NCBI GenBank assembly: GCA_009773155.1
Contig: WOVA01000016.1
Span: 25,507 to 89,506 of the forward strand
Direction of reading: 5' to 3'
Length of the DNA: 64,000 nt
From: Elusimicrobiota bacterium
GTDB taxonomy: Bacteria; Elusimicrobiota; Elusimicrobia; Elusimicrobiales; UBA9959
The position numbers and the translations under genes were made by a program. The notes below the pieces were generated by a model that was given only the letters and a program-made list of their open reading frames with translations, was not told the DNA's origin and searched no databases. Every line of letters starts with the position of its first letter. Within the stretch, counting starts at the first letter, position 1. This document shows, one piece after another, positions 9,708 through 41,303 of the stretch.

Positions 9708-9724
9708 GAACTTGAATTTTCCTG

Positions 9725-10354: not shown

Positions 10355-10365
10355 TCTTAAAGCCT

Positions 10366-11300: not shown

Positions 11301-11335
11301 CCCGGAAAATAGAGGGGGCGGCCGGAGGCGGTACC

Positions 11336-11398
11336 GGGACACCATGCCGCATGGTGTCCCCCGCTGATACACCATGCCGCATGGTGTCCCCCGCTGAT
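11336..11398. repeat. GGGACACCATGCCGCATGGTGTCCC palindrome, tandem pair (30-nt unit x2)
   Basis: The unit acaccatgccgcatggtgtcccccgctgat occurs at 11339-11368 and again at 11369-11398, in the eno-ftsB spacer. Confidence 0.9.
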
Positions 11399-11417
11399 GG
11401 CCGCCCCGTGGCGGACT

Positions 11418-22751: not shown

Positions 22752-22772
22752 GCCCCGCCCCCCCATACATCC

Positions 22773-24141
<1,369 letters not shown>

Positions 24142-24146
<5 letters not shown>

Positions 24147-25787: not shown

Positions 25788-25819
25788 TGATAGACCTAAG
25801 CATCCCTCGCCGGCTAATT

Positions 25820-28003
25820 ATGGGCTACAAAAAAGGCGGCATGATACTATTGACTTTCCTTGTCGGCGGCTTGTTCGCCGTCCAGGGGGTTTCTTTTGCC
25901 GCTAACACCCTGGAGACGCGGGCGGTCACGGGCGGGCTGGGGATCTCGTCGGGCACGGCGAAGATACTTGAGTCGGTGATAGGCGAGCTCTCCGGGCCGG
26001 CGCCGACGGGGTCCGTGCGCAAGGTCCTCTCGGGTCACGCCCGGACCAGCCACAGCCCGGGCGCGCTCTACGACATCGCGGTGACCACGCAGCCGGTGGA
26101 CGAAGGGCAGGTGCGGATAACCTTCACCACGCCCGGCCGCGCCGGCTTCCGCGGGCAGCTTTCCTTCGTGGAAGTCAAGATAGCCACCTACGCCATCACC
26201 GCGGCTAATTACGAGGCGATAACTTCGTCGCTGACGCTGACGGCGCTGAGCACCGGCACGGCGGGTCTGACCACTTATTATCACCTGGTCCCCGGGCCGA
26301 CCTATTACGCCGCCGGGCGCGCCCGCGACGCGGCGGGCATGAAGAGCCGCCTCTCGCCGACGCCGACGTTCCTGACCTCGGCCATAGCGCCGGCCCCGGT
26401 CACCTCCATTACTATCGTCAACTCAACCTACGGCGCCGTTAATATCACCTGGAACGTGACCGGCGACGACGGTTTGATCGGCGACCTGACCACCGGCTAT
26501 TTCCGCATAGCTTATTCCAGCGTGCCGGCGGAAGCGGCCCTTTTCAGTTCCGCCAATTACACCACCCAGCTTTCCACCAGCGCGCTGGCCGGCTCCACCC
26601 AGTATCACCGGCTCTCCGGCCTGCAGGGTAATGTGACCTATTACGCCGCCGTCTTCATCGGCGACGAGGTGACCGTCTACGGCGGACTCGGGACCATCGC
26701 GCAGGTTGTCACGATGGCTTATCCGCCGATCCAGTCCGGCTTCTCAAATCTTTCCAGCGACGGGTTCACGGTCAGTTATACGGCCAACAACTACCCCGGC
26801 GCGCAGTACTATATCCAGACGTCCAGCGACCCCGCTTTCTCCTATGCCACGAATTCCGGCTGGATCACGACAAGCTCGGCGTCCTTCTCCGGGCTCAACA
26901 CCAACCAGACTTACTATGTGCGCGGCAAGGCGCGCAATTCGCAACTGGTGGAAACCCAGTATGCGGACCTCGGCAGCGTCTCGCTGACACTCAACGTTTC
27001 AAAGCCCAAGCCGCCGCCCCTGAAGGGGGAGGCCTCCGGCTCCACCATAATCCTTTCCTGGGACCAGGTGGTCTACAACATAGCCGGCGGCACTACCACC
27101 ATAGCCGCGTACGACATCTACTACAGCACCGGGGTCAACGGGGCGGAGAATTTCATCGAGGCCGTCTCCAGCTCGGTGTTCACCAGGACTTACACGCCTC
27201 CCGCGGCGCGCTGGTACTATGTGAAGGCGCGCGACCAGTACAGCCTGCGCAGCGATCCGTCCATATGGGTGAAGAGTACGCTCGACGTGGCGCGCGTGGT
27301 GGCCGCCGACCTCCGCGCCGTGGCGGATATGCCGCCGGACGCGGGCTACCAACTCGCCGCCTCCGGCCTTACGCTGCGGATATCCCACCAGAGCCAGTAC
27401 GAGACCGGGCTTGTGCAGGCCTCGTATAAGGTCTCGCTGCTCGACAATAACGGCAACGAGCGCGTGGGCCTGGACCTGCCGTCCGCGGCCGTCGTGACTA
27501 TGCCCACCACCCGGACCGGCGCCGTGACCATAACCGGCTACTCGCCGTCGATCTCCTATTCCGTCTACGATTACGCCGTCTTCTACTACAACGGCGTGGA
27601 GGACGTGAACATCGGCGGCGCGGTGGACCCGAACTCCGGCACCGTCAGCGTCTCCACAAAGAAGACGGGCGTCTTCAAGGTAAAGCAGGTTATAAGGCCT
27701 TCCTCCTTCAGGATAACCCAGACCGTGCCGCGCAAGATCTTCACGCCCAACGGCGACGGGATCTGGGACGAGTTCAACATCGTCTACGACAACCCGGAGG
27801 GGCTCTCCATCTCCGACGCCAAGGTTTATGACCTCTCCGGGGCCGAAGTGGCGTCGCTGCGCGCCGGCACCTATAATACCAGCGCCTCGCTGTCGTGGGA
27901 CGGCCGGCGGAAGGGCGGCGACAAGGCGGCGGCCGGCATCTATGTCTACCAGTTTAAGGCCGGGTCAAAGTACCATAACGGCACGATGGTGCTGGCGCGG
28001 TGA
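25820..28003 (+). CDS. Large secreted FN3/Ig-like repeat protein with T9SS-type-B-like (gliding-motility C-terminal) domain
   Basis: Signal/TM segment MILLTFLVGGLFAVQGVSFA and repeated beta-rich modules (..YY.RGKARN.., WYYVKARD). The C-terminal IFTPNGDGIWDEFNIVY...GIYVYQFKAG resembles the PNGDG.ND C-terminal sorting domain. Start ATG 25820 is preferred over GTG 25787. Confidence 0.75.
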   Translation: MGYKKGGMILLTFLVGGLFAVQGVSFAANTLETRAVTGGLGISSGTAKILESVIGELSGPAPTGSVRKVLSGHARTSHSPGALYDIAVTTQPVDEGQVRITFTTPGRAGFRGQLSFVEVKIATYAITAANYEAITSSLTLTALSTGTAGLTTYYHLVPGPTYYAAGRARDAAGMKSRLSPTPTFLTSAIAPAPVTSITIVNSTYGAVNITWNVTGDDGLIGDLTTGYFRIAYSSVPAEAALFSSANYTTQLSTSALAGSTQYHRLSGLQGNVTYYAAVFIGDEVTVYGGLGTIAQVVTMAYPPIQSGFSNLSSDGFTVSYTANNYPGAQYYIQTSSDPAFSYATNSGWITTSSASFSGLNTNQTYYVRGKARNSQLVETQYADLGSVSLTLNVSKPKPPPLKGEASGSTIILSWDQVVYNIAGGTTTIAAYDIYYSTGVNGAENFIEAVSSSVFTRTYTPPAARWYYVKARDQYSLRSDPSIWVKSTLDVARVVAADLRAVADMPPDAGYQLAASGLTLRISHQSQYETGLVQASYKVSLLDNNGNERVGLDLPSAAVVTMPTTRTGAVTITGYSPSISYSVYDYAVFYYNGVEDVNIGGAVDPNSGTVSVSTKKTGVFKVKQVIRPSSFRITQTVPRKIFTPNGDGIWDEFNIVYDNPEGLSISDAKVYDLSGAEVASLRAGTYNTSASLSWDGRRKGGDKAAAGIYVYQFKAGSKYHNGTMVLAR

Positions 28004-29109
28004 GCGGAGATATTATGGAAAGGGACGAAAATAAAGTTTCTCTCCTCGCGGCCGCGGCGGCGCTGCTCTTTCTCTCCGCCGCCTCAGCGCGCGCCTCGTT
28101 CACCGATTCGGGTTACGCGGCCCGCCAGGCCGCGATGGGCCAGGCTTTCACCGCCATCGCCGACGACTCCGGCTCGGTGCCCGCCAATCCAGCGGGGCTC
28201 GTGAATCTCTCCGGTCCCGAGCTCACCGCCGTCTACGGCAAGCTCTACCAGGGCCTCTCCGACAATTCCGACATCGGCCGCGGCTATTTCGGCTTCGCTT
28301 CTCCGGTGAAGCGCTGGCTGCCCGGCGCCGCGGCTTTCAGCTGGGACGAGACCCGCCTGACGGAAGCCTACGCCGAAACCTCCTTCTCGGTCTCCTACGC
28401 CACCCGCGCCTGGCGCGGCCTGGCGACCGGCCTGACGCTCAAATACCTGCGCAAGGGCTACGAATCCGATTCTTACACGGCGGTTGACCCGCTTTTCAGC
28501 GGCGGCTACTCCAAGGCCGCCCTGGGCGTAGACCTCGGCGCGCATTACCGGCTCTCGCCGAAATATACGTTCGGCCTGCTGCTGCGCAATATCAACCGCC
28601 CCGACCTGGGCATAGGCGGGAAGGACGCGCTGCCGGCGCAGGGCAGGCTCGGCGCGGCCTACTGGCTGCGCAACGGCGTGGTCAGCCTGGACGCCGGCTT
28701 CGGCGAGGATTTCGAGCTGGCCCTGGGCGCCGAATACGTCCTTCACCACAAGTACCCGCTGCGCCTGGGGCTCAACGTAAACGACGACGCGCGCCGCAAC
28801 GTGAGCTTCGGCCTCGGCGCCAGGATGGCCTCTTTCGGCCTCGATTATTCCTTCACCCTGCCGATAGGCGGCGTGCAGGACATCTCGGGCTCGCACCTGC
28901 TGGCTTTCTCCATGCGCTTCGGCCGGGCCGACGCCGGCTTCTACGCGGCGCAGGCCGATCCCGCCGCCGCGGCCCAGCTGCGGGACGCGCTCGCGGCCCT
29001 CAAGGCCGCCGAGCAGCGCGAGCGCGATCGCGAGCGGGAGATCCTGGACCTGGAGCGCCGGCTGCTGGAGAAGCAGCGCGCTGTCGGCGGGCCGGCGCCC
29101 TCCCGATGA
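28000..29109 (+). CDS. Outer-membrane beta-barrel protein (PorV/PorQ- or PorP/SprF-like), C-terminal coiled coil truncated by a frame change
   Basis: Signal peptide LLFLSAASARA. The motif AAMGQAFTAIADDSGSVPANPAGL resembles that family. Alternating beta-strand pattern ending ...GSHLLAFSMRF, then a coiled coil (EQRERDREREILDLERRLLEKQ), with the stop at 29107-29109. Confidence 0.7.
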   Translation: MSGDIMERDENKVSLLAAAAALLFLSAASARASFTDSGYAARQAAMGQAFTAIADDSGSVPANPAGLVNLSGPELTAVYGKLYQGLSDNSDIGRGYFGFASPVKRWLPGAAAFSWDETRLTEAYAETSFSVSYATRAWRGLATGLTLKYLRKGYESDSYTAVDPLFSGGYSKAALGVDLGAHYRLSPKYTFGLLLRNINRPDLGIGGKDALPAQGRLGAAYWLRNGVVSLDAGFGEDFELALGAEYVLHHKYPLRLGLNVNDDARRNVSFGLGARMASFGLDYSFTLPIGGVQDISGSHLLAFSMRFGRADAGFYAAQADPAAAAQLRDALAALKAAEQRERDREREILDLERRLLEKQRAVGGPAPSR

Positions 29110-29485
29110 ACCCAAAGTTATTATCCCGTCGACCGAAGTCCCCGGCGAATCCATACGCGCGCTCGAGGAGACCCTGAACGCGCTCAAGGGCGAACTGGAG
29201 AAGGCCAGGCTCGAGAGCGAATCCTTCAAGACCCGCGTCAGCGGCCTCGAGGAGCGGCTTAAGACCGCGCCCAGGCCCTCGGCGCCTGCCGTCAGGCCCG
29301 CGGCCCCGGCCCCCGCGCCGGCGGCCAGGCGTTCCTACGAGGCGCAGAAAGGCGATACGCTGCAGAGCGTCGCCGAGAAAGTCTACGGCGACGCCTCGCG
29401 CTGGCCGGAGATCTACAGGGCCAACGCCGCGTCGCTCGGCCGCGGCGGAGAAGTGAAGCCCGGCCAGGTCCTGGTCATCCCCTGA
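29108..29485 (+). CDS. Coiled-coil + LysM domain reading frame without a start codon (probable frameshifted 3-prime part of the preceding gene)
   Basis: The +1 frame is open from 28868 to TGA 29483-29485 and encodes ...IRALEETLNALKGELEKARLESESFKTRVSGLEERL...YEAQKGDTLQSVAEKVYGDASRWPEIYRANAASLGRGGEVKPGQVLVIP (LysM). No in-frame ATG, GTG or TTG occurs before the domain. Confidence 0.6.
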   Translation, partial: EPKVIIPSTEVPGESIRALEETLNALKGELEKARLESESFKTRVSGLEERLKTAPRPSAPAVRPAAPAPAPAARRSYEAQKGDTLQSVAEKVYGDASRWPEIYRANAASLGRGGEVKPGQVLVIP

Positions 29486-29619
29486 CCGGGACCGAGGCCG
29501 GCGCTTTATCAGGGATTTCCCTTTTTAGTAACATTTGCGAAACACGCCGGGTGTAAATTATAGGCGCCGGTACTCCGCCCCGCCGGCGGCAAGGACGGGG
29601 CAGGTGCGGAAGAAAGCAA

Positions 29620-29681: not shown

Positions 29682-32600
29682 ATGAACGACAAATGGGACG
29701 AATCTTCGCTTAACGAGCAGGCGATAACCGACCTGGAGACGGCCAAGCTCGCGCTGCGCTGGGCGCTGGACAAGCTCCGCGCCAACCAGGAAGAGTCGCT
29801 CAAATCCCGCCAGACGCTGCAGGAGAAAGCCTCGCAGGTCTCCTTCCTCGAGAACCAGGTCAAGGCCAAGAACGCCGAGATGGAGCGGCAGCAGCGCGCG
29901 CAGGAGGAGGAGATCAAGTCCCGCCAGGAGAGCCTGGAGTACCAGTTCAGGTCCCGCCTGGAGCGCCTGACCGAGCGCGAGAAGGAACTCGAGGATAACG
30001 CCGCGAAGCTGGAGGGCTCCTTCAAGGCCCGCGAGCAGAAGCTCACCGACGACTTCCAGAAAAAATCCGAGGAACTGCGCGGCCGCTGGGGCCAGGTGGA
30101 GGCCGAGATCTGGCAGCTGCGCCAGGAGCAGCTGGCCAAGCAGCAGGAGTTCGAGAAGCTTTACGCCGAGCGCCTCTCGGCCGAGCAGAAGCGCGCCCGG
30201 GAAGAGTCGGAGAACTCCCGCGCGGAGATGGAGAGAAATTACGGGTCCCGCGTGCAGGAGCTGGAGAAGCGCGAGCACACGCTGGGCGAGGAGCTCAAGA
30301 AACAGGAAGCGGTGATGAAGTGGGCCCGCGACAGCTGGCAGAAGGACGCCGACGAGCGGGAGAAGAAGCTCAAGGTCCGCGAGCTGGAGATAGAGAAGAA
30401 ACTGCTCGAGAAAGAGCAGGAGATAGACGATTACAAGGTCAAACTGGGCCTGCTCAACAAACAGCTGACCGACCTGCCCGAGGCCGTGCGCAAGCGCGAC
30501 GAGGAACTGGAGCGCTACCGCGGCGCGCTGGACAGCCTGGAAGGCGTGATCAGGACCCTGGAAGGGGAGAAGAGAGCCCTCGCCCAGGATTCCGATTCCA
30601 GGCAGTCCCGCCTGGCCGAGGCGCTCGAGGCCGAGAAGGCCCGTTTCAAGGACCTCGAGAACGAGATCCCCAGGCGCCTCAAGATAGCCATAGAGCACGA
30701 GCGCGCCCGGCTGCAGGAGAAGGTCTCCGAGGTGGAGAAGAACTTCGGCCTGGACCTGCGCAAGAAGCAGGAAGAGGCGGACTACCTCGAGCGCAATCTC
30801 AAAACTTTCGAGGAGACCATAAAGACCCTGCAGGCCGAGCGCGAAGGGTTCGCGCAGAAGACCGAGCAGCTGCAGACCCAGCTCAATATCCGCTCCGAGG
30901 AGACCTCCTTCCGCGAGCGGCAGCTGCAGTCGGAGTACGAGGTCCGCCTCAGGGTGGAGCTCGAGAAGCAGAGCCGCGGCCTGCGCTCGGAGATAGAGAC
31001 CGCGCAGCGCATCTACGAGGACAATCTGCGCCTCAAGATCGAGGAGATCGCCCACCTGCGCAAGGAGATGGAGACCCTGGCCGGCGAGAAGTCCGACCTG
31101 TCCTCCTCCTCCTCCGAGCTGCGCCGCCAGGTGGAGGCCCAGAAGGATAAGTACGAGCGCGACCTGGCCTCGACCAGGGCCGCCCTCAAGGAGAGCCACG
31201 ACGCCGAGCTGGGCCGCCGCATGGAGGAGGAAACGGCGAAGCACGAGCAGGCCCGCGCGGCGCTGCAGAAGGATTTTTCCGCCCAGCTGGAGGGCCTCAA
31301 CCTTATAGTCGCCGAGCGCGAGGCGGAGCTCAACCGGTTCAAGAACGAGGTCCAGCGGATGTCCGCCGAAAAGGCCGAGGCTATTGCGCGGGAGAAGGAC
31401 AAGGCGCGCCAGGACCTGGAGCTGCAGGCGAAGGCGTTCGCCGAGACCGAGAAGATATACCAGGAGAAGCTGCAGCAGTCCGCGCGCAATATCGAGGCCG
31501 TCCGCGTCGAGAAGGAAGAGACCATACTGCGCGAGAAGGACCGCCTCGAGCGTATCTACGCCGAGCGCGAGAAGGATTACGAGGATCAGCTGGCCCGCAG
31601 GGACCAGGAGGTCGTGCGGCTGCGCGAGGACCTGCTAAAGTCGGCCCATGAGCGGGAGACGGTTCTTCGCGAGGTTTCGGCGGAGCGCGACGCGCTGCGC
31701 CAGAAGCTCAGGGAAGCGCATGACGCCGCCGCCCGTGCGGAAGCGCTCAAAGAACTGGAACTGGAGCGCGCCCGCCAGGCCGAGAAGGACAAGTCGGCCG
31801 ACATCCTCGACAAGCGCGACAAGGAGCTGGCCGCGCTGGCAAGGACCAAGGACGAGCAGGACGCCGCCTACCGCCGCTCGCTGGAGGATTTCCGGGCCAG
31901 GCTCTCCGAAGCCGTGGGCAAGATGGAAGAGCTTAAGGCCGTGGCCGAGGAACGCCAGACCCGCGTCTCCGCGCTGCAGGTGGAGATCTCCGAGGCCAGG
32001 CGCCAGCATAACGACGAGCATATGGCGGTGTCCGGCCGGCTGGCCGACAGGGAAAAGCAGCTCAAGTCCCTGCGGATGGACTATGATTCGCTCAAGGCCA
32101 ATTCGGCGGCCGTCACCCAGGAGTCGCAGAAGCAGATTGGCGAGGCGCTGATGCGTCTCAAGGCCGCCGAAGAGCACCGCGGCGCTTCCGAGAAGGCTCT
32201 TTCCGAAAGCCGGCGCGAGATAGATATGCGCAGGGTAGAGCTTTCCAAGAAAGAGGACGAACTGCTAAAGCTGCACTCCGACCTGGAGAGCTCGCGCAAC
32301 TCCGCAGCCCGGACAGTGGAGGAATCGCGCGGCCGCGAAACTTCCCTCAAGAGCCGGCTGGAGGTGCTCGAGTCCGAGCTGGCCGGCCGCTCTTCGCTGG
32401 CGTCGGACCTTACCGCCGAGCTGAAAGCGCGCAACGCCGAGCTTTCAAAGGCGGGGGAAGAGAAGTCCCGCCTGGAGCAGGAGCTCAACGTCAGGCTCTC
32501 GGAATTCAAGCAGCAGCTTGAGTCGGAGCGCAAGGAGTTCCGCCTGTCCTACGAGCGGCTCAACCGCGAATTCGCCGACCGGGAAAAGGCCCTGATCGGG

Positions 32601-33413
32601 GAGGTCAACGCCCTCAGAGGCCAGTTGACTTCCGGCGAGTCACTGGCCCAGGACCTGAAGTCCCGGCTCGAGAGCGCGGAGGCGGCCGGGCCCGGGATGA
32701 AGGCGCGCATAGACGAACTGCAGAAGAAGATCAGGAACATGGAAGAGGCGTCCTCGGGCCTCGCCGAGAGCCTGCTGGCGGCCAAAGAGAGCGCCTCCGC
32801 CGCCGCGGCCCGGATAGAGAAGCTCTCCGCCCAACTGGAGGACGAGAAGAAGCGCCGCTCCTCGCTCGAAGCCGCCAACGAGACGCTCTCCTCGGAACTG
32901 CGCAGGAAACTCGAGGAGTTTTCGGCGGCCTCCTCGTCCGTCAAGGACCTTTCCGGCCGCCTGGCCCGGGCGCAGGAACTATGTGAGACGGAAAAGCGAA
33001 AGCGGGAGGAGACGGAAGTCTATTCCCAGACCTCCGCTTCCGCCCTCCAGGAGAAGGAAGTGGAACTGTCCGACCTGAAGTTCTCCATGAAGGAGCTGTC
33101 TTCCAGGGTCAATAAACTCCAGTCCCTCTACGAGGCCGAGAAGCTCAAGCGCGAGGAGACCGAGGTTTATTCCCAGACCTCGGCCAGCGCCCTGCGCGAG
33201 AAGGAAGACGAGCTCAAGGGCCTCGGGAAGCGCTGCGCGCGGCTGGAATCCGAACTCAACGCCTCCAGGAAAGAGGCGGGTTCCGCGTCGGTCGAGGCGG
33301 CCAGGCTGGCCGGCGAGATCGAGGAGCTCCGGCGCGTCAAGGAAGAGTACGAAAAGAGCCGCAGGCTGGCGGAAAAGCTCAAAGATAAGCTCAAGCTATG
33401 GAAGAAGGAATGA
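29682..33413 (+). CDS. Giant coiled-coil-rich protein (about 1240 aa), no enzymatic domain recognised
   Basis: Almost entirely E/K/R/Q/L/A heptad-like sequence with no TM or signal peptide. Start set at MNDKWDES (29682; ATG 29658 is also possible). The ORF-track TTG 29535 start would read through a palindrome repeat. A C-terminal duplicated block EK.KREETEVYSQTSASAL.EKE.EL is present. Confidence 0.8.
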   Translation: MNDKWDESSLNEQAITDLETAKLALRWALDKLRANQEESLKSRQTLQEKASQVSFLENQVKAKNAEMERQQRAQEEEIKSRQESLEYQFRSRLERLTEREKELEDNAAKLEGSFKAREQKLTDDFQKKSEELRGRWGQVEAEIWQLRQEQLAKQQEFEKLYAERLSAEQKRAREESENSRAEMERNYGSRVQELEKREHTLGEELKKQEAVMKWARDSWQKDADEREKKLKVRELEIEKKLLEKEQEIDDYKVKLGLLNKQLTDLPEAVRKRDEELERYRGALDSLEGVIRTLEGEKRALAQDSDSRQSRLAEALEAEKARFKDLENEIPRRLKIAIEHERARLQEKVSEVEKNFGLDLRKKQEEADYLERNLKTFEETIKTLQAEREGFAQKTEQLQTQLNIRSEETSFRERQLQSEYEVRLRVELEKQSRGLRSEIETAQRIYEDNLRLKIEEIAHLRKEMETLAGEKSDLSSSSSELRRQVEAQKDKYERDLASTRAALKESHDAELGRRMEEETAKHEQARAALQKDFSAQLEGLNLIVAEREAELNRFKNEVQRMSAEKAEAIAREKDKARQDLELQAKAFAETEKIYQEKLQQSARNIEAVRVEKEETILREKDRLERIYAEREKDYEDQLARRDQEVVRLREDLLKSAHERETVLREVSAERDALRQKLREAHDAAARAEALKELELERARQAEKDKSADILDKRDKELAALARTKDEQDAAYRRSLEDFRARLSEAVGKMEELKAVAEERQTRVSALQVEISEARRQHNDEHMAVSGRLADREKQLKSLRMDYDSLKANSAAVTQESQKQIGEALMRLKAAEEHRGASEKALSESRREIDMRRVELSKKEDELLKLHSDLESSRNSAARTVEESRGRETSLKSRLEVLESELAGRSSLASDLTAELKARNAELSKAGEEKSRLEQELNVRLSEFKQQLESERKEFRLSYERLNREFADREKALIGEVNALRGQLTSGESLAQDLKSRLESAEAAGPGMKARIDELQKKIRNMEEASSGLAESLLAAKESASAAAARIEKLSAQLEDEKKRRSSLEAANETLSSELRRKLEEFSAASSSVKDLSGRLARAQELCETEKRKREETEVYSQTSASALQEKEVELSDLKFSMKELSSRVNKLQSLYEAEKLKREETEVYSQTSASALREKEDELKGLGKRCARLESELNASRKEAGSASVEAARLAGEIEELRRVKEEYEKSRRLAEKLKDKLKLWKKE

Positions 33414-36049
33414 CCTCCTCCTCCGGACTGGAAGGCCTGGACGCCGAAATAGACCGCCTCCTGGAGGAAGTGCAATCCAAGGAGAAAGTTTATTCCGCGC
33501 GCGTAGCGCTGCTTGAAGGCGAGCTCAAGCGCCGCGACGGGGAGGTGCACACCCTCTCGGCCAGGCTGGCCGAGTCCGAGAAGACGTGGTTCGCGCGGGA
33601 GCGCGAGCTCAAGGAGAAAGGCCGCTCGCTGAAGGAGGTCCTTGCCGAGCGCGACGCGGCCGCCGCCGACCTTACCCTCAAGGCGGAGGAACTGACGAAG
33701 AAGATCGCCTCCCTCGAAAAGAGCCTGGAGAAGGAACTCACCGCCAACAGGGAGAAGGAAGTCTACATACAGAGCGCCAAGTCGGCGGTAAAGGGGCGCG
33801 ACGCCGAGGTGGAGAAGACCTGGCGTATGCTGGAGGAGGCCCGCTCCGAGATAGCCTCCTGGAAGGCGCAGACCTCCGAGCGCGACTCGCGCCTGGAGGC
33901 CGCCGCCGCCGGGAACCAGGCCCTCGCGCTGGAGATACAGAAGCTCAACAATTCGCTGCAGCAGGCGGCGCAGGGGTTCCGGCACAAGCTGGACATGGTA
34001 AGGAAGGAAGCCGAGTCCGCCGTGCTGGAGAAGTCCTCCGCGCTGGTCCGCGTCAGCGCGGCCGAGGAGGCCATGAATGAGCGGGCCGCCTCCATGGAGA
34101 AGCTGGCCGTCAGGGCCAGGCAGCTGGAAGAGACCCTCGCCGTGCGCGAATCCCGGCTGGCCGAGCTGGAGGACAGGCTTAAATTTTTCGAAACGGTCCC
34201 GCAGTCGGCGGAGAAGGCTTCCGCCGAGACCGCGGCGCTGCGCCGCAAGGAGCGTCTGGTCTCCGAACTGACGTCACGGGTGGCCTCGCTGGAGAAGGAC
34301 CTGACTTCCGTGGAGGAGGACCGGGCGCGGCTGGCCGAGCGCATGCACGTCTCCGAGGCGGAACTGCGCGCCGCCCGCGAGGAGCTGGCCGGCTCGACCG
34401 CCAGGTTAAGGGCGCTGGAGTCGGAGCGCGACTCGTTCAAGAAACTTTCGGCGGAGGCCCAGGAGATGGCCGCCGCCATCTCGGAGAAGTCCGGGCGCGA
34501 GGATACCGAGAAACTCTCTAAAATAGGCGAGAGCCTGCGCCAGGAGCACGTCCGCTACAGTCAGGCGCTCTCGCGGGCCGAGGAACTCGCCACCCGCTAC
34601 GCCGCGCTCGAGGCCGATCACGAGGCGCTGAAAAAACGCCACGACGATTCCGTGGCGGAGAAGGCGGTGGAGATAGAGAAGCTGCGCTCCGACCTGGCCC
34701 AGGCCGAAGCGGAAGGCGCCAGGCGCCTGTCCGAACTGGCCGAGACCGACCGCCGCCGCTACCACGAGCTCGCGGGCGAGATGCAGCAGCTCAGCTCCCG
34801 CCTCGCGGAGAAGGAGATGGAGCTGGAGGCCGCCCGCTCCGGCCACGAGGCCATAAAGGCCGAATGCGCCCGCCTGCGCGAGCACGAGCGCGAACTGCAT
34901 AAGAATTACGAGCGCCAGCTCAAGGACGACAACCGCCAGCTGGAGGAGGCCCGCGCGGCCGCCGCCAGGCTGGAGGGGGAAATGCACGCCATCCATTCCC
35001 GGGAGTCCGCCCTGAAGGCGGAGGCCGCGGCGCTGAAAGCCGAGATAGAGGTCTCCAAAAAAGAGAAGAACACGGCCGCTTCTTCCGGCAAAAAGCTCAG
35101 GGAGCTGGAGTCACGGCTGGAGGAAAAGAACGACGAACTGTCCGAGGCGCGCAAGAGCCTCTCCAAGATCTCGACGGAGAAGGCGCGCTGGCACGAGCGG
35201 GAGCGCAAGCTGGCGGAGGACGGCCGCGGCGGCAAGGCCAAAGCCGAACTGGCCGACGCCGAGCGCCGCCTGGCCGCCAAGGAGCAGGAACTGTCCGGGG
35301 TCTCCGACAGGCTGGAGGCCGCCGCCGCCGAGATCTCCGGCCTGCGCGCCGCGAGGGAGAGCTTCAGGAGCAGGCCCGCCCCGGGCGCCTCGACGGACCT
35401 GCAGGAGCTGGTCGCCGGCATCGCGCACCAGATCTCCAATTCCGTCAGCATAATACGCAGCCACGCCGAGTACTGCCTGGAGGCGCCTAAAGAGTCAGAT
35501 CTCAAAGAGCCGCTGGGCGCGATAGTGCGCAGCATAGTCACCCTGCAGAAGCGCATCGAGGAAATAGCCGACTTCTCCAGGCCCGTTCTGCTGCAGCGCA
35601 AGACCGTCGGGCTCGGCGACATAGCCAGGGAGGCCCTGGCCTTCGCCGCCAACGCGCAGGGGCAGGTCCCTTTCCAGTCCAGGGTCTCCGCCCCTAAAGA
35701 CCTTCCTCCGCTGCGCGTGGACCAGGTCCGCCTGCAGGAGGCCCTGGAGCATGTCCTGACCAACGCCGCCGAGTCGCTCGGCAAGGACGGGCGGATAGTG
35801 GTGGACATACGCCGTTCGTCGGGCGGCCAGGTCATAAAAGTGTCCGACACGGGACAGGGAGTAGAACCCAAGAACCTGCCGGCGGTCTTCGAACCTTTCT
35901 TTTCCACCAGGCCAGGCAAGCTGGGTCTGGGGCTGGCGATAGCCAAGAATATCATCAAGTCGCACGGCGGAGAGATCAAGCTCTCCAGCGAGTTCGGCCG
36001 CGGAACGCAGGCCGAGATCTTCCTCCCGGACGCTCCGGAAGAGGACTAA
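33398..36049 (+). CDS. Histidine kinase with about 620-aa N-terminal coiled coil
   Basis: Overlaps the previous gene (ATGA at 33410-33413). Long coiled coil, then H-box LVAGIAHQISNSVSII and an HATPase (LTNAAESL, SDTGQGV, GKLGLGLAIAKNII.HGG). No TM segment seen. Confidence 0.85.
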   Translation: MEEGMTSSSGLEGLDAEIDRLLEEVQSKEKVYSARVALLEGELKRRDGEVHTLSARLAESEKTWFARERELKEKGRSLKEVLAERDAAAADLTLKAEELTKKIASLEKSLEKELTANREKEVYIQSAKSAVKGRDAEVEKTWRMLEEARSEIASWKAQTSERDSRLEAAAAGNQALALEIQKLNNSLQQAAQGFRHKLDMVRKEAESAVLEKSSALVRVSAAEEAMNERAASMEKLAVRARQLEETLAVRESRLAELEDRLKFFETVPQSAEKASAETAALRRKERLVSELTSRVASLEKDLTSVEEDRARLAERMHVSEAELRAAREELAGSTARLRALESERDSFKKLSAEAQEMAAAISEKSGREDTEKLSKIGESLRQEHVRYSQALSRAEELATRYAALEADHEALKKRHDDSVAEKAVEIEKLRSDLAQAEAEGARRLSELAETDRRRYHELAGEMQQLSSRLAEKEMELEAARSGHEAIKAECARLREHERELHKNYERQLKDDNRQLEEARAAAARLEGEMHAIHSRESALKAEAAALKAEIEVSKKEKNTAASSGKKLRELESRLEEKNDELSEARKSLSKISTEKARWHERERKLAEDGRGGKAKAELADAERRLAAKEQELSGVSDRLEAAAAEISGLRAARESFRSRPAPGASTDLQELVAGIAHQISNSVSIIRSHAEYCLEAPKESDLKEPLGAIVRSIVTLQKRIEEIADFSRPVLLQRKTVGLGDIAREALAFAANAQGQVPFQSRVSAPKDLPPLRVDQVRLQEALEHVLTNAAESLGKDGRIVVDIRRSSGGQVIKVSDTGQGVEPKNLPAVFEPFFSTRPGKLGLGLAIAKNIIKSHGGEIKLSSEFGRGTQAEIFLPDAPEED

Positions 36050-36063
36050 GTCCCGAGGAAAAC

Positions 36064-37236
36064 ATGGCCAAGATACTGATCGTCGACGACGAACCAGACA
36101 TGAGGCTGGCGATAAAGAACGTCCTGCGCCTGAGGGGGCACGAAGTCTCCGAGGCCCAGGACGGTCCGTCCGCGCTGGCCGCGCTGGAGGGCGAGAAGCC
36201 CGACCTGGTCCTGCTCGACATCAGGCTGCCCGGCATGGACGGCATAGAGCTGCTGGAGCGCATACGCAAGATGAGCCGCTCCCTGCCGGTGGTGATGATA
36301 ACCGGGTACGGCCACATACAGTCGGCCGTCGACGTGATGAAGCTCGGAGCCAACGAGTACCTGCAGAAACCTTTCGAGAACTCGCAGCTGGTGGATACTG
36401 TGAAGCGCTTCACTTCCGGGCGCAAGCCCGCGCCGGCGGCCGCCGCAGGGGACATCCCGCCTCATGATGGCGGGGACGCCATGCCGCAGGGCGTCGCCAA
36501 ACCTCTCTTTACCCCGGCCAGGCTGCTGGCCCTGGCCGCCGCCGCCGCCGCCCTGCTTCTTTTTTTCCGCTGGTCCGACGGCCGGCGCAATTACGCCGCG
36601 GCTTACGAGTCGGCCGGGGCCAACGTGTCATCCCTGGTCTGGCGCGGCGGGGACCTCTGGGTCTCCGACTGGCTGGAGCAGAGCCTCTACCGCTACGCGC
36701 CGCGCGGCGGCAAGCTCGCCCTTGCCGAGAAAGTCGCGCTGCCGGGCACCCATATCACCGGCTTCGCCTTCGGCGACGACGCCCTCTACATCTGCGATTC
36801 CTGGGCCGGCGTGGTGCAGGAACGTACGCTGGAGAAGGGGTTCCCGGTGGCCAGGAACCACGACCTGCCGGGCAAGATAACCTCGCTTTTCTTTGACGGC
36901 AAATATCTCTGGACCTGCGATTCGGAGGGCGTGGTCTCGCGCCGGAGGACCGGGGAAGACCTGCCGGTGGAGGCGGAGTTCCGGCTGGCGCATAAGCCCG
37001 ACCAGATCTATAAGGACTCCGGCGCCTTCTGGTCGGTGGTCTCCTCGAGCGGCAGGCTCTACCGCCACCGGCTCGACGACAAACTTTCGGTGGAGGCGGT
37101 CTTTACGGCCGGCGACCCCGGCGCCGACAGGCCCCTGTCGGCCTTTACCTGGAGCAAGGGCAGGCTCTGGCTGGCCAGGGAGGGCGGCAAGAGCATAGGG
37201 GAGTACGGCCCCGGGATATTGAAAGAAACCGACTGA
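36064..37236 (+). CDS. Response-regulator receiver fused to a TM helix and a C-terminal beta-propeller-like repeat domain
   Basis: REC (KILIVDDEPDMR...DLVLLDIRLPGMDG...KLGANEYLQKPF), TM LLALAAAAAALLLFF, then five repeats of the type [LF].W..G.LW..D (SLVWRGGDLWVSDW, ALYICDSW, YLWTCDSEG, AFWSVVSSSG, RLWLAREGG). Confidence 0.85.
   Translation: MAKILIVDDEPDMRLAIKNVLRLRGHEVSEAQDGPSALAALEGEKPDLVLLDIRLPGMDGIELLERIRKMSRSLPVVMITGYGHIQSAVDVMKLGANEYLQKPFENSQLVDTVKRFTSGRKPAPAAAAGDIPPHDGGDAMPQGVAKPLFTPARLLALAAAAAALLLFFRWSDGRRNYAAAYESAGANVSSLVWRGGDLWVSDWLEQSLYRYAPRGGKLALAEKVALPGTHITGFAFGDDALYICDSWAGVVQERTLEKGFPVARNHDLPGKITSLFFDGKYLWTCDSEGVVSRRRTGEDLPVEAEFRLAHKPDQIYKDSGAFWSVVSSSGRLYRHRLDDKLSVEAVFTAGDPGADRPLSAFTWSKGRLWLAREGGKSIGEYGPGILKETD
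36472..36498. repeat. Degenerate GGGGAC-family palindrome inside the response-regulator linker
   Basis: ggggacgccatgccgcagggcgtcgcc (arms gacgcc/ggcgtc) encodes GDAMPQGVA between the REC domain and the TM. Confidence 0.5.
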
Positions 37237-37255: not shown

Positions 37256-37293
37256 AAAACCCCACCCCCGCCATATGGCGGGGATGGGTTTTT
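37256..37293. terminator. Bidirectional rho-independent terminator ending the locus (convergent with the pilin-like gene)
   Basis: aaaaccccacccccgcc-atat-ggcggggatgggttttt. Confidence 0.78.
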
Positions 37294-37308: not shown

Positions 37309-37734
37309 TTAGTTTATCAGGTCTCTGCCGCAATTCGCGGGGCAGGTCGGAGTCGCGCTCGCGTAGGGGTAGGTGATCACATAGTTGCCGTAAGTCGCGG
37401 GAGCGGCCCCTACCCTGGTGGCGGTCGCTCCCGTGGCGGTAAGAGCTAAACTGTATATTTTCTGGACGCATGCGCTTGTGCCCGTGCATTCCGCTCCGCC
37501 GGCGGTCTTGAAGGTAACGTCCAGCTCGTCCCAGTTGGTACTGAAGACCGACTTCCTTGCGTAATACCGCTCCTGCGCGGCTTTGATAGCGGCGAAAGCG
37601 GACAGCGCTTCGGATACCCTGGCGCGCTCCACCACCTTGAAGTACTGCGGTATGGCCATGGAGGCCAGGATACCGATGATCAGCACGACGACGAGAAGCT
37701 CGATAAGAGTGAAGCCCTTGCGTATTTTTTGCAT
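37309..37734 (-). CDS. Type IV pilin-like / pseudopilin protein (prepilin N-terminal cleavage-methylation domain)
   Basis: MQKIRKGFTLIELLVVVLIIGILASMAIPQY is a class-III signal peptide with G/F cleavage and Glu+5. Confidence 0.88.
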   Translation of the reverse strand: MQKIRKGFTLIELLVVVLIIGILASMAIPQYFKVVERARVSEALSAFAAIKAAQERYYARKSVFSTNWDELDVTFKTAGGAECTGTSACVQKIYSLALTATGATATRVGAAPATYGNYVITYPYASATPTCPANCGRDLIN

Positions 37735-37841
37735 TTCTTCCGTTTCTCCTTTTGCTTATGCGGACTGCCGTACGGTTCAAAGCGTTCCCCCGGAGTTGCG
37801 CGCGCCCCTCTAAAGCGGAACCGCGGTGACGGCTTAACTGA

Positions 37842-37870
37842 ATCTTAATAAAAAGGCGCCGGAAAATCAA
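37842..37870 (-). promoter_or_regulatory. Possible sigma-70 promoter for the pilin-like gene
   Basis: Minus strand reads TTGATT, a 17-nt spacer, then TAAGAT. Confidence 0.35.
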
Positions 37871-37898
37871 GGGGGGGGACTCCGGCCCCTGAAATCTT

Positions 37899-37970
37899 TG
37901 CGCCCGGCGCGATTCGAACGCGCGGCCACCCGCTTAAAAGGCGGATGCTCTACCACTGAGCTACGGGCGC
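37899..37970 (-). tRNA. tRNA-Lys (anticodon TTT)
   Basis: Hand fold of the reverse complement: GCGCCCG-TA-GCTC-AGTGGTA-GAGC-A-TCCGC-CTTTTAA-GCGGG-TGGCC-GCGCG-TTCGAAT-CGCGC-CGGGCGC-A. Confidence 0.92.
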
Positions 37971-37975
37971 ATATT

Positions 37976-38066
37976 GGGGACGTTGTTTAGTTGTTTAGTT
38001 TTCCGTCCGGGTGGACGGATACGGGTTTCCTGCCTCCCGAAAACTAAACAACTAAACAACGTCCCC
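37976..38066. repeat. Long-hairpin palindromic element, copy 2 (28-bp arms, about 35-nt loop)
   Basis: ggggacgttgtttagttgtttagttttc ... gaaaactaaacaactaaacaacgtcccc. It differs from copy 1 by a C-to-G change in the left arm and the complementary G-to-C change in the right arm. The loop is unrelated to the copy 1 loop. Confidence 0.85.
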
Positions 38067-38089
38067 ACTGATTATACAAAAATTGTAGA

Positions 38090-38899
38090 ATGTCGCATAA
38101 CATGACGACGAACAGGCGGTACAGGGTCAAGGTCCGGTTCAAGGTGCGCAAGCGCGGCCTCGGCCTGGCCGGCGCCGTAGCGCTGGCGGTATTCCTGTCC
38201 GTCTCCGCCGTCTACGGCGTCAGGATAGCGTGGGACTGGGTCTCGCCCCGTTTCAGCCGGGGCCTGGTCAAGTTCAAACTGGAGCGCGCGGTGGTGGAGG
38301 TGCCGGCCAAAAGCGTGGAGACCTGGATAGCGTCCCACCTGTCGTCCCGGCGGGGGGAAGAGTGGACCTCCGCCGACCGCGACCGCTTTCTGGAGAGAGT
38401 GGAGAAGCGCTACCCCTACCTCAGCGAGCCGAAGCTCTCCCGCAACTTTCTGACCGGCTCGCTGCGCTTCCGCGCCGGCGTGGAGACCGTCGTCGCCCCC
38501 GTGACGCGCGCCGGAGCCTCCTGCTATCTGGGCGAGAGCGGCCGCCTCTTCCCGGAGATATACCCCGAGGCCGTCCCCGGCGGCATCAGCGCCGCGCTGC
38601 CGGCCTCGCCCGACGCCTTCCCGGACGCCGCGCGCTTCCTGTCCCGCCTCAACGCCCTTTCGGGCCTTTTCGACAGCCGCCCCGTTTCCCTGTCCTGCCC
38701 CTCGGCGGAGGGCCCCTGCAAACTGGCCCTCTCCGACGGCAGCGAGGTGCTCTGGGGCGGGTTTGAATTCACGCGCGCAAAAATATTAAGATTGAACGAG
38801 ATTTTGGAGAGATCGGCTGCCAGGCTCAAGGGTCCCTATAAGGTGGACCTGCGTTATTTCGAAGACGGCAGGGCCGTGGTTTCGGCGTCAGCCCGATAA
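38090..38899 (+). CDS. ftsQ: Cell division protein FtsQ-like
   Basis: Basic N-terminus, a single TM (LGLAGAVALAVFLSVSAVYGV), and a periplasmic POTRA-like region. Lies immediately upstream of ftsA-ftsZ. Confidence 0.7.
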   Translation: MSHNMTTNRRYRVKVRFKVRKRGLGLAGAVALAVFLSVSAVYGVRIAWDWVSPRFSRGLVKFKLERAVVEVPAKSVETWIASHLSSRRGEEWTSADRDRFLERVEKRYPYLSEPKLSRNFLTGSLRFRAGVETVVAPVTRAGASCYLGESGRLFPEIYPEAVPGGISAALPASPDAFPDAARFLSRLNALSGLFDSRPVSLSCPSAEGPCKLALSDGSEVLWGGFEFTRAKILRLNEILERSAARLKGPYKVDLRYFEDGRAVVSASAR

Positions 38900-38922
38900 A
38901 CCTGTTCTATCCGGAGACTTCT

Positions 38923-40155
38923 ATGGCTAAACCCGAAATCATCGCCGGCCTCGACATGGGCAGCGGCAAAGTTACCTGCGTCCTGGCCTCCCACGACCCC
39001 GCCGCCGGCAAGGTGCGGATAATCTCCGGCGCCAGCGTGCCCTGCAAGGGCCTCAAGGGCGGCGTAGTGGTCAGCATCCCCGAGACCACCAAGGCCGTCG
39101 CCCTGGCCATGGAAGAGGCGGAGGAGAAGGGCGGCGAGGTCATCCGCGAGGTCCTGATGGGCGTGCGCGGCACCCATATCACCACCTACAACAACCGCGG
39201 CGCCTACAATATCGCCCGTACCGACCGGGAGATCACCGCCGACGACGTGGCCAGCGTGATAGAGAGCGCCAAGGCCATCCCGATGTCCAGCGACAGGGAG
39301 ATCCTGCACGTGGTGCCGCAGGGTTTCTCTCTCGACAGGCAGAAGGGCGTGCCGAATCCCGTCGGCATGGAAGGGTCCCTGCTCGAGGTGGGCGTGCACA
39401 TCGTAACCGCTTCCAGCTCGCACATCAATAATCTCATGCGCGCGGTCTCGCAGGCCGGCTTCCGCGTGGTGGACACCGTCTACAGCCTGCTCGCGCTGGG
39501 CGAGGTGGTGGTCTCCCCCGAGGAGAAGGACCTGGGCTGCCTGCTCATCGACGTCGGGGACCAGTCGGTCTCCGTCGGCAGTTACTACGAGGGCAGCCTG
39601 CGCTTCAGCCGCGAGCTGGGCATAGGCGGCTACCACGTGACCCGCGACATCGCCTACGCGCTGCACACCTCCATGAGCGCCGCGCAGGCCATAAAGGAGA
39701 AGCACGGCGCCGTGCTCTCCTCGCTGGTGGACGACGAGGGGGCCATCAGCGTGGTCGGCCTCGACGGCCGCAACAAGCGCGAGATAAAGCCGCGCGAGCT
39801 GCTGGACTACATCCAGCCGCGCGTGGAGGAGATCTACGGCAAGGTGAACTCCGCGCTGCAGAACTGCAACTACGCCTTCCCCGGCGGCGCCGTGCTGACC
39901 GGCGGCGGCTCGCTGCTGCGCGGCATGCCCGAGGCGGCCGAGCAGATGCTGGAGCTGCAGCAGTCGCGCCTGGGCCTGCCCCGTCCCGATTTCATCGACG
40001 GCCCGCCGGAGTACATGACCCACGAGTACACCACCGCGGCCGCGCTGGTCTGCTACCCGTTCATCAGGTCCTGGCCGGGCGACGAGGGCCGCGCGGGCGC
40101 CACCTCGGGCGGCGTCTTCAGGCGGGTCAAGCGCCTGCTGCAGAACATGATCTGA
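38923..40155 (+). CDS. ftsA: Cell division protein FtsA
   Basis: Actin-fold phosphate motifs (IIAGLDMGSGKV, LLIDVGDQSVSV, AVLTGGGSLL). Confidence 0.93.
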   Translation: MAKPEIIAGLDMGSGKVTCVLASHDPAAGKVRIISGASVPCKGLKGGVVVSIPETTKAVALAMEEAEEKGGEVIREVLMGVRGTHITTYNNRGAYNIARTDREITADDVASVIESAKAIPMSSDREILHVVPQGFSLDRQKGVPNPVGMEGSLLEVGVHIVTASSSHINNLMRAVSQAGFRVVDTVYSLLALGEVVVSPEEKDLGCLLIDVGDQSVSVGSYYEGSLRFSRELGIGGYHVTRDIAYALHTSMSAAQAIKEKHGAVLSSLVDDEGAISVVGLDGRNKREIKPRELLDYIQPRVEEIYGKVNSALQNCNYAFPGGAVLTGGGSLLRGMPEAAEQMLELQQSRLGLPRPDFIDGPPEYMTHEYTTAAALVCYPFIRSWPGDEGRAGATSGGVFRRVKRLLQNMI

Positions 40156-41303
40156 TGCCCAGGATTAACTGCATAGAGGAAAGCCGGGAGCACGAAGCCG
40201 TCATAAAAGTGATAGGCGTCGGCGGCGGCGGCGGCAACGCCGTCAACCGCATGGTGCAGTCCGGCATACGCGGCGTGGATTTCATCGCCCTCAACACCGA
40301 CGCCCAGGCGCTGCGCATGAACTCCGCCCCGGTGCGCATACAGATAGGGGAGAAAGTGACCGAGGGCCTCGGCGTGGGCGGCGACCCGGCCGTAGGCCAG
40401 CAGGCCGCCATGGAGTCCGAGGAGCAGATAAAGGACATCGTCCGCGACGCGGACCTCATTTTCGTCACCGCCGGCATGGGCGGCGGCACCGGCACCGGCG
40501 GCGCGCCCGTGGTGGCGCGCGTGGCCAAGGAGACCACCAACGCTCTCGTCGTGGGCGTGGTCACCAGGCCCTTCGGTTTCGAGGGCAAGAAGCGCCAGGA
40601 CCAGGCCGAGGCCGGCATCCGCGAACTGCGCGCCCACGTGGACTCGCTGCTGATCATCCCCAACGAACGGCTGATGGAGATCGTGAGCCGCGACACCACC
40701 ACCCCCGAGGCCTACCGCCTGGCCGACGACGTGCTGCGCCAGGCCATACAGGGCATCTCCGACGTGGTGACCCGAGCCGGGACGATAAACGTGGATTTCG
40801 CCGACGTGCGCAAGATCATGACCAAGTCCGGCGAGGCGCTGATAGGCATAGGCAAGGCCGAAGGGCCGGACCGCCACATGGAGGCCGCCAGCCTGGCCAT
40901 ACACTCGCCCCTGCTCGAGAACGTCGTGATGGAGGGCGCGCGCGGCATACTGGTCTACTTCACCTCTTCCAAGGACCTGCGCCTCTTCGAGATAAACGAG
41001 GCGATGGATTACATCAAGAAGTCGGCCAGCTCGGACGCGATGATAAAGTACGGCCAGGCCTACGACGATACGCTGGGCGACAGCATCGTCATCACGGTGG
41101 TCGCGACCGGCTTCCCGTCCAACCACAGGCGCGTGCGCGAGCTGGGGCCGGGCCGACACCAGGGCGCCCGCCGGCCGCCGGCGCCCGGCGTGGAGTACGA
41201 GGCGGACCCTTCGCTGCTGCAGCCGCCGCCTTTCCTCTCCGAAGACGAGGATATAGACAAGCCCGCTTTCATCCGCGCCGGCGGCAAGAGGATCCTCAAG
41301 TAA
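40155..41303 (+). CDS. ftsZ: Cell division GTPase FtsZ
   Basis: GVGGGGGNAVNRM and the tubulin signature GMGGGTGTGGAPVVA. The start overlaps the ftsA stop (TGATG). Confidence 0.97.
   Translation: MPRINCIEESREHEAVIKVIGVGGGGGNAVNRMVQSGIRGVDFIALNTDAQALRMNSAPVRIQIGEKVTEGLGVGGDPAVGQQAAMESEEQIKDIVRDADLIFVTAGMGGGTGTGGAPVVARVAKETTNALVVGVVTRPFGFEGKKRQDQAEAGIRELRAHVDSLLIIPNERLMEIVSRDTTTPEAYRLADDVLRQAIQGISDVVTRAGTINVDFADVRKIMTKSGEALIGIGKAEGPDRHMEAASLAIHSPLLENVVMEGARGILVYFTSSKDLRLFEINEAMDYIKKSASSDAMIKYGQAYDDTLGDSIVITVVATGFPSNHRRVRELGPGRHQGARRPPAPGVEYEADPSLLQPPPFLSEDEDIDKPAFIRAGGKRILK

Follow-up and report, generated by a model that had tools for sequence, protein, structure and literature searches.

In a 64,000-nucleotide stretch of contig WOVA01000016.1 from an Elusimicrobiota bacterium (hereafter the window), the gene at 36064-37236 on the + strand encodes a response regulator of 390 amino acids, which consists of a receiver domain (REC), a linker, one hydrophobic helix predicted to be a transmembrane (TM) segment and a five-bladed beta-propeller. 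We regard it as a response regulator whose C-terminal module spans the membrane and lies outside the cytoplasm; membrane-bound receiver proteins as such are already known. Its architecture and topology are well supported by inference. An output that acts across the membrane, which was the original prediction made from the letters of the window alone, is one of several readings and is not the best supported one. Our own reading is tentative and falls somewhat short of an even chance: we propose a regulated tether, in which the response regulator would be a joint, controlled by phosphorylation, that connects a coiled-coil scaffold in the cytoplasm with an anchor in the envelope.

The reading frame had been placed exactly, with 390 codons on the + strand. 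It begins with an ATG start codon that has an AGGA motif 6 nucleotides on its 5' side, and its GC content by codon position (0.65/0.47/0.86) shows the same pattern as the real genes of the window, which as a whole has a GC content of 64%. An identical protein, from a metagenome-assembled Elusimicrobia genome, is stored at NCBI under the label "response regulator FlrC". A protein search returned about 110 full-length homologues of 378-417 amino acids and 32-88% identity, in which the same domain plan is kept; the named ones come nearly all from Elusimicrobiota, as metagenome-assembled genomes. Note that all sequences compared here are from uncultured genomes, and that the conservation statistics were calculated on an alignment of 39 response-regulator homologues. 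The structure prediction suggested together with the original prediction was run with AlphaFold2 on a homologue alignment; it modelled all parts of the full-length protein, with a mean predicted local distance difference test score (pLDDT) of 90.8. Pfam, AlphaFold2 and Foldseek agree with the proposed list of parts, that is, a receiver, a linker, one helix and a propeller, the latter with five blades.

The receiver domain covers residues 4-113 (36073-36402, + strand) and matches the Pfam family Response_reg (PF00072) with an E-value of 2.7e-34 and 118 bits, where the curated cutoff is 30.2. Its catalytic set is complete (D8, D9, D52, T80 and K102), Y99 is also there, and the codon of the phospho-acceptor D52 is found at 36217-36219. 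All 39 homologues have D52, K102 and P103, at least 90% of them keep D8 and D9, and T80 is invariant or nearly so. AlphaFold2 models the (beta-alpha)5 fold with a pLDDT above 93. Since the catalytic residues are complete and conserved, we read the domain, which had already been described as complete, as a working receiver rather than a pseudo-receiver. The best sequence models for it are NtrX (7e-30) and NtrC (1e-25), with scores far below the equivalog cutoffs. Public records list members of the family (P0001, P0015 and P0110) as "FlrC", "sigma-54-dependent transcriptional regulator" or "CheY-like chemotaxis protein". An identity as FlrC or another sigma-54 activator was rejected: Pfam finds neither the Sigma54_activat domain (AAA+) nor HTH_8, and the receiver alone aligns. 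Judged by these domain matches, the labels "FlrC" and "sigma-54-dependent" are over-annotations and are corrected here.

The gene directly upstream encodes a histidine kinase of 883 amino acids (33398-36049, + strand), with about 650 amino acids of coiled coil, a HisKA domain (Pfam, 1.4e-6) and a HATPase_c domain (2.9e-22). It ends 14 nucleotides before the start of the response regulator. The kinase core is similar to AtoS (5e-47) and ZraS (3.5e-37), again with scores far below the equivalog cutoffs. As a pair, receiver and kinase core find their best sequence matches in NtrC/AtoC/NtrX with AtoS/ZraS, from which the present system differs in having no AAA+ and no HTH_8 domain. We could find no membrane segment in the kinase (maximum mean Kyte-Doolittle hydropathy, KD, of 0.93) and, with Pfam, no recognisable sensor domain. 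To compare gene orders, the window proteins were mapped onto 40 related metagenome loci and six further loci. Wherever a related locus includes upstream sequence, the gene immediately before the receiver carries a kinase core, and this extends to the distant loci, in which the propellers share 27-38% identity. From this adjacency, the coiled-coil kinase is very likely the cognate partner of the response regulator.

The start of the kinase gene is overlapped by the 3' end of another gene, which encodes a giant coiled-coil protein (29682-33413, + strand) of about 1243 amino acids when counted from M50, or 1292 as listed. The protein has no Pfam match and no membrane segment (maximum KD 0.73), and a head motif at its N-terminus, LETAKLALRWALDKLR, is conserved in relatives. 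The listed TTG start of this reading frame at 29535 is probably wrong: all homologues begin at the methionine equivalent to 29682 (MNDKWDESS...).

Between receiver and propeller lie the linker and the helix. The linker, residues 118-147 (36415-36504, + strand), is disordered and rich in proline, alanine and glycine (7 A, 6 P and 5 G among 30 residues); pLDDT falls to about 38-49 at residues 121-147. Neither its length nor its sequence is conserved in the homologues; it counts about 30 residues in the window protein and takes up about 30-70 columns of the alignment. The predicted single TM helix follows at residues 148-168 (36505-36567, + strand; LFTPARLLALAAAAAALLLFF), with a hydrophobic core, LLALAAAAAALLLFF, at residues 154-168, and AlphaFold2 models one long helix for residues 151-175. 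The best 19-residue stretch, residues 148-166, has a mean KD of 1.95, and the next best in the protein reaches 1.04. A single strongly hydrophobic 19-residue stretch is found at the same position in all 39 homologues (KD 1.57-3.03, next best about 1.0-1.5). Among them the hydrophobicity of the helix is conserved and its sequence is variable.

We then considered the orientation of the helix in a larger set. A search with a propeller profile was made over 1.84 billion representative proteins, and its matches together with those of the homologue search gave 216 single-propeller relatives. A hydrophobic segment is found at most 60 amino acids upstream of the propeller in 207 of them, and the median gap from the end of the helix to the start of the propeller is 7-8 amino acids. 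The helix flanks of these relatives hold 3.1 Lys and Arg on the N-terminal side versus 2.0 on the C-terminal side (N>C in 138 and N<C in 28 proteins; Wilcoxon p=3e-17), and such an excess on the N-flank is the positive-inside signature of a helix with its N-terminus inside and its C-terminus outside (N-in/C-out). Furthermore, signal-peptide-like N-terminal segments occur in at least 15 multi-propeller relatives. Because neither the kinase nor the coiled-coil protein has a membrane segment, the receiver should be phosphorylated in the cytoplasm. We infer that, quite likely, the propeller is periplasmic and the receiver cytoplasmic. The extracytoplasmic repeat domain of the original prediction is in this way supported by the conserved hydrophobic segment, the positive-inside bias and the membrane-free partner kinase.

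The propeller itself, predicted to be periplasmic and membrane-proximal, extends over residues 176-388 (36589-37227, + strand). The full-length AlphaFold2 model has an all-beta domain at residues 178-388, and the C-terminal 219 residues modelled alone reach a pLDDT of 95.8 and a predicted TM-score (pTM) of 0.91, with about 21 strands. Five four-stranded blades are formed in 213 residues. The blades, of 38-44 residues, carry the motifs LWVSDW, LYICDSW, LWTCDSEG, FWSVVSSSG and LWLAREGG. The five repeats of the type W/F..G.LW..D, from which a beta-propeller-like fold had been proposed, are the five blades of this model, and its matches in the PDB are five-bladed as well.

The closest fold is that of the bacterial and plant type I glutaminyl cyclases: when the model was compared with the PDB by Foldseek, the top matches were 3mbr, 3nol, 3nok and 2iwa, with a query-normalised TM-score (TMq) of 0.76-0.78 over about 230 aligned columns and an identity of 13-15%. 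These enzymes are five-bladed propellers (PMC7948796). However, the Pfam family Glu_cyclase_2 gave no match in 21 members of the family at E<=1, and a profile search of the PDB sequences with the propeller did not retrieve the cyclases. A glutamate is the catalytic residue of type I glutaminyl cyclases; no glutamate is invariant in the propeller among the 39 homologues, and the conserved residues are those of the repeated D/W blade motif. A glutaminyl cyclase identity was rejected, as the likeness is at fold level only, with neither a match to the hidden Markov model (HMM) of the family nor a conserved glutamate.

The profile search of the PDB sequences did return Vgb lyase (3.6e-6). The Pfam family SGL reaches 17.6-20.3 bits against a cutoff of 26.3, and in the window protein too it stays below that cutoff. 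Among the 21 members there are weak Pfam matches to NHL (6/21) and Vgb_lyase (1/21), none of them shown to reach the curated cutoff, as well as weak matches to Reg_prop (E 0.33) in two; SGL and DUF6923, too, are matched in a minority of the members. A six-bladed propeller of the NHL, SGL or Vgb-lyase type was rejected on account of the five blades and the weak family HMM signals, and going by these scores the relationship to NHL, SGL and Vgb is a remote one and not membership. Note that the propeller alignment is too divergent for pattern scanning.

A different kind of relative was found in the profile search, namely Elusimicrobiota proteins of 560-1150 amino acids in which a long coiled coil is joined to the propeller through a similar helix. 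Two such fused coiled-coil-TM-propeller loci could be read in long contigs; no kinase or receiver is present within 10 kb in either of them, and both adjoin BBP2_2 barrels in polysaccharide-type loci. An HMM of the first 50 residues of the operon coiled-coil proteins matches six of the fused proteins at residues of about 7-49, with E-values from 3e-10 to 7e-7, and a pairwise BLAST comparison of an operon coiled coil with a fused protein aligns their N-termini over 38 residues at 45% identity. In one related locus, L003, coiled coil and kinase form one protein of 1776 amino acids with the same head motif. Head and stalk occur in three arrangements: fused to the helix and propeller, fused to the kinase that is paired with a receiver-helix-propeller protein, or as a separate protein beside such a pair.

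The fused proteins vary in their neighbourhood and in their size. Locus L005 has tandem coiled-coil-TM-propeller paralogues of 991 and 749 amino acids at 6960-12250, with no kinase or receiver nearby. The BBP2_2 barrels (PF10082) are 557-577 amino acids long (L003 11964-13637, L005 12240-13973 and L006 11827-13524); such a barrel adjoins the distant response-regulator homologue in L003 and the fused coiled-coil-TM-propeller genes in L005 and L006. The polysaccharide-type genes are Bac_transf, a glycosyltransferase and DUF5989 in L006, and a carbamoyltransferase with DUF5989 in L005. A group of coiled-coil-TM-propeller proteins has about 690 amino acids (P0190, P0197, P0203, P0212, P0215, P0230 and P0235). 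In these the region before the helix is collinear with the receiver and is without the phospho-acceptor aspartate (KPQVLVIS versus PDLVLLD). An alignment of this region with the receiver profile by hhalign gave P=0.005 and a probability of 7%. The region may be the relic of a pseudo-receiver, which we take as a lead only.

We would picture the regulated tether as follows. The response regulator would be a bitopic protein of the inner membrane, in which a floppy linker of about 30 residues connects a cytoplasmic receiver to a single N-in/C-out helix, followed by a periplasmic propeller, and the receiver would take its phosphate on D52 from the soluble coiled-coil kinase encoded 14 nucleotides upstream. 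The helix-propeller unit would serve as a modular envelope anchor. Since the fused relatives have the same head motif, the kinase-receiver pair would replace a covalent joint, that is, the contact between kinase and receiver would stand where sister lineages have a covalent bond from coiled coil to anchor. Phosphorylation would then set the coupling of scaffold and anchor, or the clustering of anchors, by means of receiver docking or dimerisation. Because the linker is disordered, rich in proline and alanine and variable in length, a rigid coupling through the membrane is unlikely, and no conformational push through the membrane would be involved. The propeller starts about 7 residues after the helix and so would sit on the membrane surface. 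Seated on this periplasmic face, it probably holds a membrane-proximal periplasmic partner from its own operon; such a partner could be the barrel/coiled-coil/LysM protein of the outer membrane or one of the secreted proteins, all described below. It is doubtful, if possible, that the system goes as far as a two-component "clutch", in which phosphorylation would reversibly couple a giant coiled-coil cytoskeleton to the layer of peptidoglycan and outer membrane, maybe at the site of division or of the pilus.

Several points weigh against the regulated tether. The head motifs are alike over no more than about 35 residues, in a sequence rich in coiled coil. The hydrophobic span of the window protein is interrupted at R153, which leaves an unbroken run of just 15 hydrophobic residues before R169, so that a membrane span relies on the snorkelling of R153. 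The gene order is conserved within a single phylum, and part of this conservation may be due to common descent and not to function. The binding of the receiver to the scaffold, the binding of the propeller to an operon product and the direction in which information flows are proposals only. Finally, short TM-propeller proteins had been taken as a free-standing form of the anchor, and this was partly withdrawn, as some of them are gene-call fragments: P0218 (247 amino acids) is the C-terminal part of a REC-TM-propeller protein of 430 amino acids, and P0130 lies at a contig end.

The REC-TM-propeller gene to which P0218 belongs is split in locus L128 (5492-6744) into reading frames of 176 and 247 amino acids with an overlap of 22 nucleotides. 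An intact version of 430 amino acids, P0267, belongs to the same 90% cluster, and the neighbourhood of the split gene includes CheC/CheX/CheD and a REC-PAS protein.

The original prediction amounts to an inside-out output: phosphorylation of the receiver would change the oligomeric state of the protein and by this switch an activity of the periplasmic propeller, such as binding, sequestering or catalysis. Architecture and topology fit such an output. The kinase is cytoplasmic and without a periplasmic sensor, and information plausibly starts inside the cell. NtrC-type receivers, which are the closest sequence relatives of the receiver, change their dimer state on phosphorylation. There is also a precedent in LapD, an inside-out receptor in which a cytoplasmic signal acts on a periplasmic event (PMC3032553). 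The likeness to LapD is functional only: a signal received in the cytoplasm would take effect in a periplasmic part of one and the same protein of the inner membrane. LapD binds cyclic di-GMP and has a pair of TM helices with a rigid HAMP relay, whereas here we see one helix, a disordered linker and a receiver, and Pfam finds no LapD output domain, HAMP or degenerate GGDEF-EAL in the response regulator. Moreover, the disordered linker of variable length excludes rigid coupling, so that only clustering could carry a signal; the same propeller occurs in the fused relatives without any phosphorylation module, so that its role needs no switch; and the alignment of the 39 homologues holds no conserved set of glutamates or histidines of a catalytic type. 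We consider an inside-out output unlikely.

Information could also flow from outside to inside. In that case the propeller would bind or sense something in the periplasm and control the position or clustering of the receiver, and the protein would be a co-sensor or a localised CheY-like regulator. The receiver would either feed back on the sensor-less kinase, as a phosphate sink or scaffold, or act within the cytoplasm, for example on the machinery of the pilus or of division. Propellers outside the cytoplasm serve as sensors in known proteins, for example in PknD and in the hybrid two-component systems of Bacteroides, and a kinase with no recognisable sensor domain, the weak Reg_prop matches in 2/21 members, the pilin genes and ftsQAZ that adjoin in closer relatives, and a flexible linker that suits a tethered, diffusible receiver would all be in line with this. 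On the other hand, distant homologues lack the adjacency to pilin and fts genes, the kinase shows no consistent linkage to a second response regulator, and the fused coiled-coil forms favour a structural over a sensory role. An outside-in function seems improbable to us.

Much less likely is a helix that does not span the membrane, but acts as a monotopic anchor or dimerisation helix and leaves the whole protein, including the propeller, in the cytoplasm. The window copy, alanine-rich and with its 15 uninterrupted hydrophobic residues, would allow for it. However, the segments of the homologues are 19-21 residues long with a KD of up to 3.0, the charges show the positive-inside bias, the same type of propeller follows signal peptides in multi-propeller proteins, and the helix sequence is unconserved, as expected of a lipid-facing span. 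An enzymatic propeller under control of the receiver, be it a type I glutaminyl cyclase tethered to the membrane or some other enzyme, is extremely unlikely: the cyclases are the best fold matches over the whole domain, but the low identity, the missing Glu_cyclase_2 match in the 21 members, their absence from the profile search and the lack of an invariant glutamate speak against it.

How does the regulated tether compare with known systems? The nearest known architecture appears, by analogy, to be that of the PknD-type receptor kinases of Mycobacterium tuberculosis, which have a cytoplasmic Ser/Thr kinase, a linker, one TM helix and an extracytoplasmic NHL beta-propeller. They share the overall plan, in which a signalling domain in the cytoplasm is followed by a flexible linker next to the membrane, by one TM helix (here predicted) and by an NHL-like propeller on the outer side. 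They differ in that PknD has a kinase and six blades, whereas the protein described here has a receiver and five blades and belongs to a two-component operon. The polarity proteins FrzS, AglZ and RomR of Myxococcus combine a receiver with a coiled coil and are soluble. They resemble the present case in that receivers work with long coiled-coil or scaffold proteins and not with DNA; here, however, coiled coil and receiver belong to different proteins, and the receiver is joined to a propeller that is predicted to be periplasmic.

Membrane-bound receiver proteins include the hybrid two-component systems of Bacteroides and the TM-LytTR regulators of Caulobacter (PMC10269533). The Bacteroides hybrids have in common with the predicted layout of our protein the membrane location, the cytoplasmic receiver and the periplasmic beta-propeller repeats. 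In them, an N-terminal sensor propeller is followed by kinase, receiver and DNA-binding domain in one chain, whereas in our protein the order is receiver, helix and propeller, and Pfam finds no kinase or DNA-binding domain in the chain. The domain set of the Bacteroides hybrids (Y_Y_Y, kinase core and AraC HTH) was not found: we see the receiver only, and weak Reg_prop signals in 2/21 members. An archaeal architecture, MetOD3-REC-MetOD2, also has a receiver with transmembrane segments (PMC5847659). Both it and the Caulobacter TM-LytTR proteins combine a receiver and transmembrane segments in one protein, but their outputs are cytoplasmic DNA-binding or helical ones, with no large folded extracytoplasmic domain C-terminal to the receiver. 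Lexical literature searches on membrane-bound, anchored or transmembrane response regulators found no description of the REC-TM-propeller architecture. The earlier remark that this is not a described class of response regulators stands in so far as these searches found no such paper and the public annotations are generic or wrong; we use "undescribed" provisionally.

Response regulators are treated as cytoplasmic switches, the output of which is DNA binding, an enzyme or protein binding. This picture becomes wider with a conserved family whose receivers are linked, across the membrane, to a folded domain predicted to be periplasmic. Together, the sensor-less coiled-coil kinase and the coiled-coil-propeller fusions make a testable case of phosphorylation that acts on trans-envelope architecture. 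If the "clutch" were true, this would be a class of response regulators for mechanical or topological coupling across the membrane, instead of transcription or enzymatic output. To our knowledge, the cell biology of Elusimicrobiota is almost uncharted, and the present system offers a first way to approach the function of several of their very large coiled-coil proteins and of a conserved cluster of envelope genes beside ftsQAZ.

This cluster begins with two secreted proteins of 472 and 738 amino acids (24369-28003, + strand), which have signal peptides and a conserved synteny and stand at the head of the putative operon; the one of 738 amino acids shows fn3, CHU_C and FlgD_ig signals in Pfam. 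They are followed by a third secreted protein, a TraF_2-like beta-barrel that ends in a coiled coil (28000-29109, + strand), supported by a signal peptide and a TraF_2 match (Pfam, E 2.8e-4) and conserved in the cluster. Next to it, in another reading frame, lies a peptidoglycan-binding LysM segment (29153-29491, + strand) that matches the LysM protein of L003 in tblastn with an E-value of 2.6e-14. The LysM match is present in 17 related loci. In the three relatives that were read (L088, L095 and L105) the LysM frame is continuous with the upstream coiled-coil segment, so the barrel reading frame of the window, with its stop at 29109, is probably frameshifted. Going by these relatives, the LysM segment probably belongs to the barrel protein and is split in the window by a frameshift or an assembly error.

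The giant coiled-coil protein, the kinase and the response regulator come next. A bidirectional intrinsic terminator, with a stem of 12 pairs and T-runs on both strands, lies at 37261-37288 between the response regulator and a convergent type IV pilin gene (37309-37734, - strand; Pfam N_methyl, E 5.5e-9). The latter is found in closer relatives only. We could not find any strong + strand terminator between 24369 and 37236, and this hairpin is the only one. As the genes overlap or nearly abut and a terminator comes only after the response regulator, we call the cluster a putative operon.

In the closer relatives the order is secreted proteins, barrel-LysM protein, giant coiled-coil protein, coiled-coil kinase, response regulator, one or more convergent pilins, ftsQ, ftsA and ftsZ. 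The part from the pilin(s) to ftsQ-ftsA-ftsZ (37309-41303 in the window) is kept in L001, L088, L091, L095-L099, L104-L109, L114-L116 and L123, and some relatives have an extra OmpR-type two-component pair between pilin and ftsQ. Synteny with the pilin is absent in the distant homologues L003, L004 and L117-L125. In the distant loci the pilin and fts genes are lost, and a LysM protein or a BBP2_2 outer-membrane barrel is kept beside the kinase-regulator pair.

Upstream of the cluster (20557-24146) there are a sigma-54 gene (Sigma54_DBD), an NtrB-like kinase core (about 22089-22736) and an NtrC-type activator (22773-24146). Unlike the response regulator, the latter has both the sigma-54 interaction domain and the helix-turn-helix domain. 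Together the three could serve the nearby pilin gene as a module of the PilS/PilR kind.

A minor feature lies within the codons of the linker. At 36472-36498 (+ strand), in residues 137-145, we see a degenerate copy of a palindrome, as had been noticed from the letters: an inverted repeat of 13+13 nucleotides, 85% complementary and two mismatches away from the dispersed element. This 27-nucleotide palindrome, GGGGACRCCATGCSGCAKGGYGTCCCC, has three further copies in the window, at 11335-11361, 14572-14598 and 50542-50568, so that there are four copies where shuffled sequences lead one to expect none.

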